Positions 14,295-57,516 of a stretch of DNA of 64,000 nucleotides are shown here, one piece after another. The stretch covers positions 14,619 through 78,618 of the forward strand of contig CAZYQT010000003.1 in the NCBI GenBank assembly GCA_964650255.1. Direction: 5' to 3'. Both the position numbers and the translations under genes were made by a program. Numbering within the stretch: the stretch's first letter is position 1; each line of letters starts with the position of its first letter. The stretch comes from an uncultured Candidatus Saccharibacteria bacterium (GTDB lineage: Bacteria; Patescibacteriota; Doudnabacteria; UBA920). Under the pieces are notes generated by a model. It had not been told where the DNA came from and searched no databases. It worked only from the letters and a program-made list of their open reading frames with translations.

Positions 14295-14651
14295 GAAACT
14301 TTCCCATGGCCATACCCAACTTGAATTCATTTGAGTAATTGGGTGTCCAGTCTTAATATAGAATGGCTCGAAGAACTTTATGTTACGTACGCAATAATCA
14401 CTTTCGCCGCTAGACCGATGTACTAATCCTTCCTTATAATCTTTTGCGTGGGGTCCTAGTACAATTACTTTATCCAAGTATTTTTGAGAATCTGTTTGAG
14501 GGCTACAAGAATAAGAAGTGAGAAGAGGGATAGCCAATATAATTATCACCAGAAAATATATAAGTCTACTCTTACCTTTGAATGCCAAGCTTAAGATTAT
14601 AAAACTTGCAGGTATTAGAGTGAGTATAATATATAAACCGCCATCAAACAT
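14292..14651 (-). CDS. small membrane-anchored protein (119 aa)
   Basis: N-terminal two TM helices; start overlaps the upstream gene stop by 8 nt. Confidence 0.5.
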   Translation of the reverse strand: MFDGGLYIILTLIPASFIILSLAFKGKSRLIYFLVIIILAIPLLTSYSCSPQTDSQKYLDKVIVLGPHAKDYKEGLVHRSSGESDYCVRNIKFFEPFYIKTGHPITQMNSSWVWPWESF

Positions 14652-14991
14652 TCGAATTTAAATTTACTGTTGATGAAACATGTCGTTTGTGAATTTTTTT
14701 GGTAAACCATAGGATGACGAATGCTATCACTATCCAAATGGCAATGTTGATAAACCAATTCAATATCAAAGTAGATGACTCAAATCCTAAAGAGCTATTT
14801 ACGCTTTGTCGGAAAGGAAATCCAAAGTGTAAAATAGTTTCCACAGACTTACCACTTTTATTTAGGGGTTCGGGTACAATATTATATTCAGGAGATACAG
14901 ATAAATAATAAATAGACCAGCCAAGGGCTATCCCTAAGAGTATACTCCAGCCTGCAAGATGTTTTTTTGTTTCCAAAGTAAATATTTTCAT
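14644..14991 (-). CDS. small membrane protein (115 aa)
   Basis: Start set to internal Met MKIFTLETKK, because the listed ORF start at 15093 would read through the terminator and tRNA-His. Confidence 0.5.
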   Translation of the reverse strand: MKIFTLETKKHLAGWSILLGIALGWSIYYLSVSPEYNIVPEPLNKSGKSVETILHFGFPFRQSVNSSLGFESSTLILNWFINIAIWIVIAFVILWFTKKIHKRHVSSTVNLNSNV

Positions 14992-15003
14992 ACATAAATA
15001 ATA

Positions 15004-15031
15004 ACAAAAAACCGCCGTAAAGGCGATTTTT
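15004..15031 (-). terminator. terminator directly after tRNA-His (family copy aacaaaaaaccgccGTAAAggcgattttt)
   Basis: cgcc/ggcg stem, T-run on minus strand. Confidence 0.6.
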
Positions 15032-15033
15032 GC

Positions 15034-15108
15034 TGGGGTGATCGAGGAGAATCGAACTCCCGACCTCGCTGCCACAGAGCGATGTTTTACCATTAAACTA
15101 CGACCACC
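15034..15108 (-). tRNA. tRNA-His (anticodon GTG) with encoded G-1 and CCA
   Basis: Hand-folded cloverleaf: G-1, acceptor GTGGTCG/CGATCAC, D-stem GTTT/AAAC, anticodon stem TCGCT/AGCGA with loop CTGTGGC, T-arm GGGAG-TTCGATT-CTCCT, discriminator C73, then CCA. Confidence 0.8.
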
Positions 15109-53111: not shown

Positions 53112-53918
53112 ATGGAAATATTTCAAGCGTTTATTTTGGGAATGGTTCAAGGGTTGGGTGAGTTTTTGCCCATCTCCAGTTCGGCACACTTAATCCTTGC
53201 GCCGTGGTTGTTCAAATGGACCGACCCAGGTTTAGCTTTCGACGTTGCATTGCATTGGGGAACGCTACTGGCTGTAGTCGCGTATTTTTATAAGGAAATA
53301 TGGAAAATATTTCTCGGTTTTATGCGTTCCCTTACCAAGAAAGGCCGTGATATTAAAAATGATATTTATCAGCGCCTAGCCTGGCTGCTGATCTTGGCAT
53401 CAATTCCTGGAGCAATAATAGGAAAGTTGTTAGAACAGCAAGCAGAAACAAGTTTCCGTAGCCCCATTTTAATTGCCGGCACTTTGGCGGTGGTGGGCGT
53501 AATTTTGTGGCTATCAGATTTATACGGCCGGAAGCAAAAAGATATTGAACATATTAAGTGGTTGAATGCGCTTATCATTGGATTTAGTCAAGCGCTAGCA
53601 ATTATCCCTGGCGTATCTCGAAGTGGCGCGACTATTACTGCTGGACTTCTACAGGGATTCAAAAGAGAAGATGCGGCCAAGTTCAGCTTTTTAATGTCTA
53701 TCCCCATTATACTTGGGGCCGGAATTTTTAAATTACCTGAGATTGCTAACATTCAAAATACAGGTGCCTTAGCGGTTGGATTTATTTCATCAGCAGTGTT
53801 TGGGTTTTTGGCTATCAAGTTTATGCTTCAATATTTAGCACATCGTACTTACGCGATTTTTGCTTGGTATAGATTTGCCCTTGCGTTAATAATTGTTTTG
53901 GTTTATTACTTTCGTTAA
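53112..53918 (+). CDS. uppP: undecaprenyl-diphosphatase
   Basis: GLGEFLPISSSAHLIL N-terminal motif and GVSRSGATI. Confidence 0.9.
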   Translation: MEIFQAFILGMVQGLGEFLPISSSAHLILAPWLFKWTDPGLAFDVALHWGTLLAVVAYFYKEIWKIFLGFMRSLTKKGRDIKNDIYQRLAWLLILASIPGAIIGKLLEQQAETSFRSPILIAGTLAVVGVILWLSDLYGRKQKDIEHIKWLNALIIGFSQALAIIPGVSRSGATITAGLLQGFKREDAAKFSFLMSIPIILGAGIFKLPEIANIQNTGALAVGFISSAVFGFLAIKFMLQYLAHRTYAIFAWYRFALALIIVLVYYFR

Positions 53919-53927
53919 AGTCGATAA

Positions 53928-54482
53928 GTGCAGCATGTTCCTATGATTAAGCATTCTACTTACCTTGAATATCAAGAAGCGCTTCATGGGAATAAGTTGT
54001 TCCGTGCGTTCTGGGAATTTTGGGGGAACCATTCTTTTGTATTTTTTGTTGCCGCTGGTATTTACGCGCTTGCCAATCCAGAATATGCAGTCGCTGCCAG
54101 ACAATTATCAATTTTATTGATTGCTGCTCTACTAATTGCTCGTGGCATAGTCGTGACTATCATCAATGCCATATATGAAAGACAAAGGCCATACCAAGTC
54201 TATGGTTTCGTCCCAATTACTTCTCGATTTTTTTCATTCACTACACGGATACCAAATTCATTTCCATCGCGGCATGCCACAGTTTTCTTTGCCTGGTCTA
54301 CTGTGGTGAGTTTGTTTTTCCCGGGGTTGGGTGCTGCTCTTGTGGCCGTATCTCTTGCAACAGGCGTGGCGAGGGTGGTGTTGGGGTACCATTGGTCATC
54401 AGATGTCATAGCAGGAGCTTTAATAGGTACTTTGGTGGGGTATTTAACTGTTTTGATTGGTCACCCTTTACTATTTACTTAA
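53928..54482 (+). CDS. PAP2-family phosphatase
   Basis: PAP2 motifs PSRHAT and GYHWSSDV. Confidence 0.8.
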   Translation: MQHVPMIKHSTYLEYQEALHGNKLFRAFWEFWGNHSFVFFVAAGIYALANPEYAVAARQLSILLIAALLIARGIVVTIINAIYERQRPYQVYGFVPITSRFFSFTTRIPNSFPSRHATVFFAWSTVVSLFFPGLGAALVAVSLATGVARVVLGYHWSSDVIAGALIGTLVGYLTVLIGHPLLFT

Positions 54483-54522
54483 AGGTTAAAATTTGCTAAA
54501 ATTGTAAGGATTTTAGTAATTA

Positions 54523-54608
54523 GCCGGCGTGGTGGAATGGGATACACGAACGACTCAAAATCGTTTGTCCTTACGGACATGTGGGTTCGACTCCCACCGC
54601 CGGCACCA
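54523..54608 (+). tRNA. tRNA-Leu (anticodon CAA), class II with long variable arm, CCA encoded
   Basis: Acceptor GCCGGCG/CGCCGGC, anticodon stem AACGA/TCGTT with loop CTCAAAA, variable arm TGTCCTTACGGACATGT, T-arm GGGTTCGACTCCCAC. Confidence 0.8.
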
Positions 54609-54614
54609 AAATAA

Positions 54615-55214
54615 ATGTATTACACAAAACCCGTCAAATGGAATAGAGAAGTCTTGGCTTATCTTGTTGGTGTGGGTTTAGGTGATGGAAACCTATCTAA
54701 GGTAAACGGTAGAGCTGTTAGGTTAAGGATATCTTGTGATTTAAAGTATCCTTTTTTGATTACAGAAATTATCGCTGCTATTAAATATGTTTTACCAGAA
54801 AGCAGTGTTGGTTTAGTTCCCAATAGTAGAAGGTGCGTCAATATTGTATCGTATTCAAACTACTGGGAAACAATACTTGGCTGGAAAGCTCTATTGGGTA
54901 GCAAGTTTGCACAGAATGCTCGCGTACCCGATTGGATTTGGTATAAAGATGAATATGTTAAAGCTTGCTTAAAGGGATTGATTGAAACTGATGGATCAAT
55001 TTACAATGATCGCGGATATCCCATGGTTATGTTTACTAATGTTGTTAAGGATTTAGCAATGGATGTTTTTGAAATGATGCAATGGCTTGGATATAAGCCT
55101 AAGGTTTATAGTATGTTGCCAAAGTCTGAATTTAATAGACAGAGATTTTATCATGTTCGTCTTTCTAGACAAGTGCAAGATTTTTTAAATTTAATTCAAC
55201 CAGTAAAAGCTTGA
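54615..55214 (+). CDS. free-standing double-motif LAGLIDADG homing endonuclease
   Basis: Two LAGLIDADG motifs, LAYLVGVGLGDGNL and LKGLIETDGSIY, about 100 aa apart; starts 7 nt after the tRNA-Leu CCA and ends 1 nt before parB. Confidence 0.7.
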   Translation: MYYTKPVKWNREVLAYLVGVGLGDGNLSKVNGRAVRLRISCDLKYPFLITEIIAAIKYVLPESSVGLVPNSRRCVNIVSYSNYWETILGWKALLGSKFAQNARVPDWIWYKDEYVKACLKGLIETDGSIYNDRGYPMVMFTNVVKDLAMDVFEMMQWLGYKPKVYSMLPKSEFNRQRFYHVRLSRQVQDFLNLIQPVKA

Positions 55215-55215
55215 T

Positions 55216-56214
55216 ATGGACAGTATTGTACCGCACCAGCAGCCCCCTGAGCCGCAACCAGATTTTATTGAAGAGTTTGATGATCTAGTATCAAGCTCTG
55301 ATTTTGTTGCCACACAACAAGATGCACCTGTGGTGGATACCAGTGTACCGATGGAAGCTTCGACGGAAGCACCAACCGAAAAAGTTTCTTACGCGGATAG
55401 CAGTATTCAAGAATTGGATATTGCGTCGATTGTAGCTAACCCGTATCAGCCACGCACACAGTTTAAACCTGAGGCTCTCCAAGAATTGGCCGACTCGATT
55501 AAAGAGCATGGCGTGATTCAGCCTTTGGTAGTGACAGAAACTCCAAATGGTTTTGAGTTGGTAGTGGGGGAGCGACGTTTTCGTGCGTCACAGCTTGCAG
55601 GCTTAACCAAAGTGCCAGCGATTGTGAAAAAAACTTTGCACGATCAAACTAAGTTAGAAGTTGCGCTCATTGAAAATATTCAACGGCAAGAATTAAACGC
55701 CATCGAAGAAGCGCGCGGTTATGATCGATTAATTAAATCTTTTAACTTAACTCAGGATCAGGTTGCAAAAAAAGTGGGCAAGTCTCGCAGTGCTGTGGCC
55801 AACACCTTGCGATTATTAAACTTGCCAGCCGAAATTCAGCGGGGTGTTATTGAAGGAAAGATTACCGAAGGCCACGGTCGCGCAATTTTAGGATTAGGCG
55901 ACAGCATGGAAAAAATGATTTTGATGTATCAGACTATTCAAGATCAAGGCTGGAATGTTCGCCAGGTGGAAGCTAAGGTGCGTGAAATCACTGTGAAGCG
56001 CAGGATCGATGCTGCCACCCCAGATCCAAAACTAATGGCTATTGAAACCGAATTACGTGGCAAGCTGGGTGCGCAAGTGAAAATCCAACGCCAGGGCCGC
56101 GGCGGTAAAATTACAATCGACTTTTTCAGCGATGAAGATTTAGATGAAATCTTACAAAGAATTCGCGAAGAGCAAAGCGGTAATATAGATCAAGATAATT
56201 ATTTAGTTGTTTAA
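55216..56214 (+). CDS. parB: ParB/Spo0J partition protein with about 70-aa acidic N-terminal extension
   Basis: ParB box GERRFRASQLAGLTKVPAIV, HTH, C-terminal dimerisation region; no parA in the window. Confidence 0.85.
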   Translation: MDSIVPHQQPPEPQPDFIEEFDDLVSSSDFVATQQDAPVVDTSVPMEASTEAPTEKVSYADSSIQELDIASIVANPYQPRTQFKPEALQELADSIKEHGVIQPLVVTETPNGFELVVGERRFRASQLAGLTKVPAIVKKTLHDQTKLEVALIENIQRQELNAIEEARGYDRLIKSFNLTQDQVAKKVGKSRSAVANTLRLLNLPAEIQRGVIEGKITEGHGRAILGLGDSMEKMILMYQTIQDQGWNVRQVEAKVREITVKRRIDAATPDPKLMAIETELRGKLGAQVKIQRQGRGGKITIDFFSDEDLDEILQRIREEQSGNIDQDNYLVV

Positions 56215-56250
56215 AAAAACTTGGCCACTCGCCAAGCTTTTTTTAAAAGT
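56215..56250. terminator. bidirectional terminator
   Basis: cttggc/gccaag stem with A-run and T-run; between convergent genes. Confidence 0.6.
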
Positions 56251-56253
56251 GGT

Positions 56254-57516
56254 TCAAGAAATTTGCCTCGGGGTTGGTTTGTAGAGAAGCAAGAAAATTA
56301 AGCCGGAAAATAGAATCATTACTGATGAAACCATGAGCGGAGCACTTGGTGTTAACCATGCTGCAACATATCCGGAAAGCATTGGTGCGATTGATTGTGC
56401 CAACGTATTGATACTAGAATTCACGCCTAAAATCTCGCCTTGCTTATCGGGTCCAGCACTCCGGCTGATTAATGACAAGAAATTTGCTTGAACTAAGCCA
56501 ATGAACATGGCAAAGAAAGGCACAATGAAGAGTAGCCCAGAACTGGTTTTGGGCACAAAGAATAAAGCAATGCTACCAGCTAGAGCGATTAAGCCAAACC
56601 GCAGAATACTATGTTCATTAAAATGTTTTGAGATAGTACTGTTTACCACTAATTGCGAAAATACAATCCATAAACCAATGTAGGCGAAGAAGTCACCTAC
56701 ATTGCCTTGAGTAAAATCAAATTTACGAATTAAGAAGATACTCGCGAATGTAAACAAAAAATTAAATCCCGCTTGAAACAAAAAATTACTAACAAAAGGA
56801 ACTCGTAAGGACTTTGCACGAAACGCAGCAATAATGTTGCGTATAGATTTTAACCACTGAATATATACGTGCGGATGAATTTTGGGTAATGTTTCCGGGA
56901 ATAGTACTAACACTGATAGGACGTTTATAAAACTTAACCCAGCGGCGAACCAAAATGGAGTGGCCGGATTAAACCAGTCCACTAGATTTGGGTCAGAAAG
57001 CTTTCCGCCTAAGTATGGGCCAATAATTAATCCTAGACCAAAGGCCGCACCAATAAACCCGAAATTACGAGCCCGCGTTACAGGAGTTGAGACATCGGCA
57101 ATCGCGGCTTGTGCAACAGAAATGTTGCCACCAGTTAAACCATCAACAGCGCGAGCGACAAACAACAAAGGGATGCTGCGAGTTAGAACTCCAATGGCAA
57201 ATGCAATATAGGAGAAACATGTGCCAGTCAATGAAACTGCCAAAACTTTCTTTCGTCCGAATTTGTCTGAAATCTGACCCAGAATTGGCGTAGCCACAAA
57301 TTGCATCAAAGGATAAATACCCACCAAGAAACCCAGTAAGATATAGCCAGTGTCTATAGACATGCCAGGGGGTAAAATTGAAAACACTGAGTTTTCGTTA
57401 CCAAGAAGTTGTGGTACCACAGGAATTAAAATACCGTAACCGAGCATGTCTACAAAAATTGTAAACAATACTACTGGTAACGGCCTGCGGCGTAAAAGTG
57501 ATGCGAGTTTTCCCAT
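56254..57516 (-). CDS. MFS efflux transporter (TetA-like motif GRKKVLAVSL)
   Basis: Twelve TM helices; MFS motif A G(R/K)xGR(K/R) in loop 2-3. Confidence 0.75.
   Translation of the reverse strand: MGKLASLLRRRPLPVVLFTIFVDMLGYGILIPVVPQLLGNENSVFSILPPGMSIDTGYILLGFLVGIYPLMQFVATPILGQISDKFGRKKVLAVSLTGTCFSYIAFAIGVLTRSIPLLFVARAVDGLTGGNISVAQAAIADVSTPVTRARNFGFIGAAFGLGLIIGPYLGGKLSDPNLVDWFNPATPFWFAAGLSFINVLSVLVLFPETLPKIHPHVYIQWLKSIRNIIAAFRAKSLRVPFVSNFLFQAGFNFLFTFASIFLIRKFDFTQGNVGDFFAYIGLWIVFSQLVVNSTISKHFNEHSILRFGLIALAGSIALFFVPKTSSGLLFIVPFFAMFIGLVQANFLSLISRSAGPDKQGEILGVNSSINTLAQSIAPMLSGYVAAWLTPSAPLMVSSVMILFSGLIFLLLYKPTPRQIS

Follow-up and report, generated by a model that had tools for sequence, protein, structure and literature searches.

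The window analysed here, a 64,000-nt stretch of contig CAZYQT010000003.1 from an uncultured Candidatus Saccharibacteria bacterium, carries a gene for a predicted LAGLIDADG homing endonuclease (homing-endonuclease gene, HEG; loci with or without it are written HEG+ and HEG-) between the gene for tRNA-Leu(CAA) and parB, with all three on the forward strand. The tRNA gene (54523-54608), identified by ARAGORN and by Rfam at 57.4 bits, encodes an intact type-II tRNA with a long variable arm and an encoded CCA. A 6-nt spacer, AAATAA (54609-54614), lies between the CCA and the ATG of the HEG (54615-55214), a two-domain open reading frame (ORF) of 199 aa supported by the ORF list, Pfam, homologues, fold and dN/dS. 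This ATG begins at the seventh base after the CCA, the TGA stop occupies 55212-55214, and after a single nucleotide parB begins with its ATG at 55216 and extends to 56214; its product is a complete ParB with the Pfam domains ParB_N, HTH_ParB and ParB_C. A sequence-only reading of the same DNA had placed the HEG start 7 nt after the CCA of an intact tRNA and its end 1 nt before parB, and the coordinates agree. The genes upstream of the tRNA are glyA, uppP (BacA) and a PAP2 phosphatase gene, and the GC content of the HEG is 35%, against 41% for the whole window.

The two LAGLIDADG motifs that the sequence-only reading had recognized are both present. Motif 1, LAYLVGVGLGDGNL, spans residues 14-27 (L14-L27; 54654-54695, forward strand) with the core LVGVGLGDG, and motif 2, LKGLIETDGSIY, spans residues 119-130 (L119-Y130; 54969-55004, forward strand) with the core LKGLIETDG; residue numbers throughout are those of the window protein. 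In an alignment of 37 homologues that are 46-78% identical, the invariant positions are G19, G23, D24 and G25 in motif 1 and L119, G121, E124, D126 and G127 in motif 2. The acidic residues that had been singled out for checking, D24 and D126, are therefore both conserved and are the putative catalytic aspartates. Pfam LAGLIDADG_3 (PF14528) matches residues 113-194 with E = 7.5e-9 and 36.2 bits against a cut-off of 22.5, which bears out the expected family assignment and covers motif 2; for the N-terminal domain the Pfam search gave no match.

The AlphaFold model has a mean confidence score (predicted local distance difference test, pLDDT) of 92.5 and shows the secondary-structure order H-E-E-H-E-E-H twice, that is, two alpha-beta-beta-alpha-beta-beta-alpha halves. 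Its best PDB folds by Foldseek are I-DmoI, the endonuclease domain of PI-SceI and I-Tsp061I (E about 1e-8, template-modelling (TM) score 0.65-0.72), and a sequence search of the PDB with the window protein gave no match. The protein search returned 298 homologues, and dN/dS between the window HEG and its four closest relatives is 0.09-0.18, so the ORF is a real coding sequence. The family is compact: E <= 1e-30 is reached by only about 20 clusters (50% identity), and beyond these the scores fall sharply to those of other LAGLIDADG proteins. Since motifs, profile and fold all agree, the window protein is a single-chain LAGLIDADG homing endonuclease, with predicted activity.

The gene is free-standing, as had been proposed. 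No Rfam intron model matched at E <= 10 in 53500-56500 or at the gathering threshold across the window, nine atypical related loci yielded tRNAs only, and the 6-nt and 1-nt flanks of the HEG leave no room for an intron; a group I or group II intron origin was rejected. An intein was likewise set aside: the 199-aa ORF stands alone with its own start and stop and has no Hint or intein Pfam domain, and in NCBIfam the sole match, with the endonuclease portion of a protein that contains an intein, is far below threshold at 13.7 bits against a cut-off of 1700. A phage-borne element was also rejected, a scan of viral contigs having given one match at 27% identity and PHROGs only a weak family of unknown function.

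Several further features surround these genes. A promoter-like site on the forward strand (54474-54502; TTTACT-17 nt-TAAAAT with TG) lies about 20 nt ahead of the tRNA. It matches the consensus only, and sites of this kind showed no enrichment over shuffled sequence. A terminator-like hairpin with a T-run (56220-56236, forward strand) follows parB and is the likely end of the tRNA-Leu/HEG/parB unit. In ParB, residues ~1-60, which precede ParB_N at residue 63, form a Pro/Gln/Glu/Asp-rich extension of variable length among relatives (55216-55400 in the window), and the first ParB codons (MDSIVP...) are kept in HEG+ and HEG- alleles, so the annotated parB start is probably real. Elsewhere in the window, an ORF on the reverse strand (14644-15093, within the region 14644-15107) has its listed start within tRNA-His (15034-15107), so that the T-arm is read as its first residues, GVRFSS. 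Its true start probably lies downstream (MKIFTLETKK...), its product is a small membrane protein and not an endonuclease, and it may be the source of the tRNA-end theme that the sequence-only reading had seen elsewhere in the window.

Linkage to the 3' end of tRNA-Leu(CAA)

We collected 80 of 166 confirmed relatives in GTDB species-representative genomes, almost all of them metagenome-assembled genomes of Patescibacteria from many classes; related loci from other genomes or contigs carry labels between L001 and L095. tRNA scanning was applied to the 74 loci with at least 100 nt of upstream sequence. In 64 of these 74, a tRNA-Leu(CAA) gene on the same strand ends no more than 45 nt before the HEG start. 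Another six have tRNA-Leu(CAA) within 450 nt in a different arrangement, one has it 2.9 kb away, and only three, all on GC-rich contigs, have none. Of the 64 loci where the two genes abut, 37 have a gap of 0-5 nt and 22 one of 6-21 nt, the 6-nt spacer of the window falling in the second class; in two loci the ATG overlaps the CCA. No other tRNA species was found adjacent to the HEG among the loci analysed.

The linkage persists whether parB lies downstream, lies upstream on the opposite strand or is absent, and it is found even on a 70% GC contig labelled Binatia (L009). The six loci with other arrangements include two in which a degraded second tRNA copy abuts the HEG (L056 and L074), one with the tRNA convergent with the HEG (L052, 3974-4666), one with it divergent (L058, 1073-1799) and one with the tRNA after the HEG; in this last locus (L078, 3986-4745) the HEG is followed by tandem tRNA-Leu(CAA) and tRNA-Leu(CAG), and there is no tRNA upstream. 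Taken together, these data show that the 3' end of the tRNA-Leu(CAA) gene is the home site of this compact subfamily; the position characterizes the family as a whole.

The linkage first showed itself in the N-terminal extensions of many database homologues (RVGSIPTTGTK and GVWVRFPPPAPP, for example), in which the T-arm and acceptor of the tRNA have been translated. Extensions of this kind occur in proteins P0002, P0010, P0014, P0016, P0019, P0039, P0045, P0053, P0060 and P0120. The extensions of database homologues are an annotation artefact that hides the tRNA linkage.

GC-rich copies of the HEG (51-65% GC) occur in L009 (3890-4558), L021, L025 and L020, on contigs of 58-70% GC labelled Binatia, proteobacterium or Terriglobales. 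In L009 the HEG directly follows tRNA-Leu(CAA), yet there is no canonical start codon after the tRNA. L021, a GC-rich contig with no intact tRNA, has fragments resembling the tRNA 3' end (TCGACCTCGGCACCA-like) on both sides of the HEG. If the binning is right, these copies suggest transfer across phyla.

A second line of evidence comes from the sequence that follows the HEG. We scored the 70 nt after each HEG stop with a position weight matrix (PWM) of the tRNA 3' end and compared the scores with those of 1560 control windows. A second, partial tRNA 3' end turned up in 13 of 78 loci, where chance would give about 0.8, and at least nine of these remnants begin at T-loop nt 56-58. The remnants differ in sequence from the functional tRNA upstream, and for this reason a search with each locus's own tRNA 3' end was weak (significant in only 3/66) and the family PWM was used instead. 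The results show that, in about one locus in six, a displaced and diverged 3' end of the resident tRNA lies downstream of the HEG. An integrase-generated tRNA island was considered for this architecture and rejected: the ~600 nt between tRNA and remnant are filled by the LAGLIDADG ORF alone.

In the window itself the best PWM score in 55200-55500 is 0.26 bits, so that a remnant is absent there, and no flanking repeats were found around the HEG. The same tight packing of tRNA, HEG and parB is seen in L001-L004, the four closest relatives, and the distance from HEG stop to parB is 1-3 nt throughout the window clade. The window copy, which has no remnant and hardly a nucleotide to spare on either side, is thus an insertion that has become established and streamlined.

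Presence, absence and turnover of the cassette

Metagenome contigs were searched with the window ParB. In its closest relatives (59-78% ParB identity) the gene order glyA-uppP-PAP2-tRNA-Leu(CAA)-parB is kept, and the HEG is present in 1 of ~25 loci containing the tRNA. The sequence-only reading had supposed that the HEG sits where parA would normally precede parB, and had asked whether relatives have parA there and lack the HEG. The HEG is indeed absent from most relatives, but in HEG- relatives tRNA-Leu(CAA) stands directly before parB and no parA was found. Nothing was therefore displaced: tRNA-Leu followed by parB is the ancestral adjacency, and the HEG replaced no parA. The window also has no ParA/Soj deviant Walker A motif (KGGxGK[ST]) in any of the six frames of its 64 kb, so its parB has no nearby parA partner, and displacement of parA was rejected as an explanation.

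Two pairs of close relatives show how the locus changes. L006 (HEG+) and L095 (HEG-) are about 84% identical over 8 kb, the sole indel is the HEG, and their tRNAs differ at one T-loop base; an 'ACCA' microhomology at the junction may be due to chance. L003 (HEG+) and L081 (HEG-), which are near-conspecific, match at 95-100% identity in their flanks, on one side as far as the PAP2 stop and on the other from the parB ATG, and the sequence between is unalignable. There L003 has a 36-nt spacer, a tRNA-Leu(CAA) allele and the HEG, whereas L081 has a 53-nt spacer, a tRNA-Leu(CAA) only 64% identical to that of L003, and then 33 nt. The window spacer at 54483-54522 contains TTGCTAAAAT...GGATTTTAGTAA, which is common to the HEG+ alleles (window and L001-L004) and differs in the HEG- loci L081 and L082. 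L003 and L004, compared as a possible second cassette swap, proved uninformative, with flanks only 70-81% identical.

The same L003/L081 pair holds a further mosaic block: between L003 2947-3246 and L081 12-311, the 3' part of uppP is 63-75% identical and the adjacent PAP2 90-100%, a sign of a further recombination breakpoint some 650 nt ahead of the cassette.

Across the loci tested, the GC content of the HEG lies below that of its flanks by a mean of 7.5 points (sd 2.9). Divergence of the HEG correlates only weakly with that of ParB (Spearman 0.33, MAFFT alignments), and some pairs have 69% HEG identity with 44% ParB identity. Traces of former HEGs in empty sites, which could tell loss from gain, were also sought: HEG 3'-end remnants were not significant in 6/7 sites (the remaining site, L088, gave p = 0.008 uncorrected), and tblastn for HEG pseudogenes found nothing convincing. 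The comparisons show that the HEG is optional: as a cassette inserted between the tRNA and the gene that follows, it moves or is lost, sometimes with the tRNA or its 3' part. The distribution is of the homing type, with one defined site and presence/absence polymorphism in close relatives, and a homing or insertion site at the tRNA, as suggested earlier, is likely; the family as a whole is tied to the 3' end of tRNA-Leu(CAA).

These observations also bear on whether the protein has been domesticated, as the sequence-only reading had allowed. It would then serve the host, for instance as a WhiA-like DNA-binding regulator or through some action on the tRNA-Leu/parB region, and would have descended vertically, with frequent losses, from an early ancestor in the Candidate Phyla Radiation (CPR). 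Some sources do label homologues 'transcriptional regulator WhiA', Pfam gives weak sub-threshold matches to WhiA LAGLIDADG-like domains, the parB neighbourhood is kept in many lineages, and the protein is under purifying selection. WhiA, a conserved housekeeping gene, encodes degenerate LAGLIDADG domains without catalytic residues together with a C-terminal helix-turn-helix (HTH). By contrast, the WhiA matches of the window protein fall below the cut-off (17.1 and 12.9 bits vs ~23), its 199 aa include no C-terminal HTH, and both catalytic aspartates are invariant; on these grounds, and given its absence from close relatives, identity as a WhiA-type regulator was rejected. Domestication in any form has to contend with the fact that most close relatives, and a near-conspecific genome too, lack the gene, with its low GC relative to the flanks, and with tRNA remnants and degraded tRNA duplicates that are insertion scars. 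We consider it most improbable.

A proposed homing mechanism

We propose, with a probability of roughly 0.7, that the locus is a mobile cassette, consisting of the tRNA 3' end or the whole tRNA plus an intact and probably active free-standing HEG, that homes at the 3' end of tRNA-Leu(CAA) and is read through from the tRNA. The enzyme would cut HEG- alleles of tRNA-Leu(CAA), probably in or near the T-loop or T-arm, a position suggested by the fact that most remnant junctions map there. Repair from a HEG+ template would then copy in the HEG along with either a replacement for the tRNA 3' end or an entire tRNA allele, and the incoming part would restore the essential tRNA and presumably resist cutting.

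Expression would likewise depend on the tRNA. The 0-21 nt between tRNA and start codon leave no room for a promoter or a Shine-Dalgarno sequence, from which we infer that the HEG, having no promoter of its own, is transcribed by read-through from the tRNA promoter. Processing of the tRNA 3' end would free a leaderless or near-leaderless HEG mRNA. In the window, parB would be the last gene of this unit, probably sharing a transcript with the HEG and coupled to it in translation.

Candidates for the sequence that confers immunity are T-loop nt 59, nt 72 or wholesale divergence of the tRNA allele. At nt 59, G prevails in HEG+ alleles and C in HEG- alleles (Fisher test: p = 1e-5 with all loci, p = 3e-4 in the synteny group alone), a contrast that is confounded by phylogeny, and the window tRNA has the 'HEG-minus' base, C59. 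This is one of several points that weigh against the mobile-cassette proposal. The cleavage target of the enzyme, and even its activity, are predictions. A target inside the tRNA implies that the intact HEG-linked tRNA would also be cut, and no single immunity polymorphism fits all cases. There is no remnant in the window or in L001-L004, and the duplication architecture is known from other lineages only. The closest hosts tend to carry the closest endonucleases, so much of the inheritance is vertical. A HEG- allele from the window's exact species was sought by look-ups of identical HEG and identical ParB, which gave only HEG+ contigs, and by a PAP2 look-up, which gave nothing.

Some of these same observations would suit a relic, a former homing endonuclease now immobile in this lineage and kept because it is wedged in the transcript that runs from tRNA-Leu to parB. 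Only 1 nt separates its stop from the parB ATG, so an imprecise deletion would harm parB expression or the tRNA. The missing remnant and flanking repeats, the equally tight packing in L001-L004, the occurrence of the window's exact ParB and endonuclease in HEG+ copies only, and the match between close hosts and close endonucleases are all in keeping with such immobility. However, dN/dS of ~0.1 and catalytic residues that do not vary point to selection acting on the protein; turnover of the locus continues within the window's clade, as the near-conspecific L003 and L081 show; and precise loss does occur (L006/L095). A relic is in our view unlikely.

The tRNA-parB gap also houses unrelated genes in L084 and L090, a further point against the proposal: the gap could be a general insertion hotspot, and part of the family pattern could reflect this. 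Carried to its end, this argument makes the HEG a passenger that cuts elsewhere or cuts nothing, gathers behind tRNA-Leu(CAA) as a hotspot of recombination or expression, and spreads by homologous recombination in its flanks. Besides the unrelated ORFs, the L003/L081 swap, bounded exactly by the flanking genes, is what flank-mediated recombination predicts. Against this, the linkage follows the tRNA and not the flanks, persisting with other neighbours and on the GC-rich contig with a non-CPR label; the start codon lies 0-21 nt from the tRNA end in ~60 loci; remnant junctions cluster in the T-loop; and no member of the family was found beside another tRNA. A mere passenger is decidedly improbable. 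The two ORFs themselves, both at HEG- loci, are an IS200/RAYT-like Y1 transposase ORF of 137 aa (L090, 326-739) and a 103-aa ORF of unknown function (L084, 472-783).

The mobile-cassette reading can be taken one step further, to a tRNA-borne gene drive that cuts HEG- copies of the essential tRNA-Leu(CAA) near the T-arm, carries a resistant tRNA allele or 3' half, and has its mRNA made by tRNA 3' processing. We offer this as a tentative possibility, with the odds somewhat against it. If true, it would be a bacterial counterpart of mitochondrial 'tRNA punctuation' yielding a leaderless message, and the family would amount to a natural collection of monomeric meganucleases, compact at ~200 aa, whose tRNA-gene targets co-evolve with them.

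To our knowledge, bacterial homing endonucleases are known almost only from introns, inteins and phages and, in the CPR, from rRNA insertions. A family of free-standing endonucleases that has its fixed place at the 3' end of a single tRNA gene and brings a replacement tRNA end or allele with it would be a first among bacteria and would extend the mobile-ORF mechanism of mitochondria to bacterial RNA genes; it would also explain the mosaic tRNA-Leu(CAA) alleles and the recurrent recombination breakpoint beside parB in Patescibacteria. The start codon abutting the tRNA raises the questions of how such ORFs are translated and whether tRNA processing makes leaderless bacterial mRNAs. The family would further supply dozens of compact single-chain LAGLIDADG scaffolds, each beside a natural candidate target region. 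A full-text literature search, which did not span all journals, found no description of a LAGLIDADG family linked to tRNA-Leu(CAA).

Comparison with known systems

The T4 Seg proteins, including SegB in the T4 tRNA cluster, are free-standing GIY-YIG phage enzymes that drive 'intronless homing'. They resemble the proposed system in having a free-standing gene beside the target region, co-conversion of flanking markers and donor immunity by sequence polymorphism; the window family differs in being chromosomal and in belonging to the LAGLIDADG type. Among LAGLIDADG enzymes, I-DmoI, I-Tsp061I and PI-SceI share with the window protein a two-domain monomer of ~190-200 aa with one acidic residue per motif. 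These enzymes, encoded by archaeal rRNA introns or an intein, are only 16-20% identical to the window protein, which lies outside any intron or intein and has a tRNA gene as its site.

Closer in host range are the LAGLIDADG enzymes of CPR rRNA insertions, such as I-ShaI, which are mostly single-domain homodimers in group-I-like rRNA insertions and from which the rRNA genes of Saccharibacteria are largely free (PMC11270868); tRNA is nowhere mentioned in that report. The host radiation, the superfamily and the strategy of targeting a highly conserved RNA gene are the same, but the window protein is double-domain, free-standing and tRNA-linked, and it occurs in Saccharibacteria-like genomes. Group I introns with endonuclease genes occur in bacterial tRNA genes, and those in the tRNA-Asn and tRNA-Asp genes of Patescibacteria, self-splicing elements of the anticodon loop that encode HNH enzymes (PMC13011429), provide another case of a homing endonuclease associated with a tRNA gene in this group. 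Unlike these, the present element has no intron, its site is 3' of the tRNA and its enzyme is LAGLIDADG.

The best match is found in mitochondria. Mobile ORFs (mORFs) in Glomus are free-standing LAGLIDADG or GIY-YIG genes at the 3' end of atp6, atp9, cox2 or nad3, which bring a foreign C-terminus and leave the native C-terminus downstream as a remnant (PMC3630166); an atp6 case from Allomyces macrogynus is cited in the same paper. Both systems show, in the present family at some loci only, the order of complete host gene, endonuclease ORF and displaced, diverged host 3' end, with no intron, and in both the inserted 3' end is unlike the native one, presence and absence alternate between close relatives, and expression is by read-through, presumed in the present case. 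The ORF lies directly 3' of an intact host gene, at 6 nt in the window and 0-21 nt in ~60 relatives, and the foreign part of the host gene is seen in relatives, not in the window, as diverged remnants and as the tRNA alleles of L003/L081. The differences are that the host gene is a bacterial tRNA and not a mitochondrial protein gene, that the ORF is not fused to it in frame, that the remnant occurs in 13/78 loci and not in the window, that a whole tRNA allele is sometimes exchanged together with its promoter spacer (L003/L081), and that the endonuclease function is predicted. In architecture, the element appears closest to these mitochondrial mobile ORFs, of which it would be a bacterial, tRNA-based analogue.

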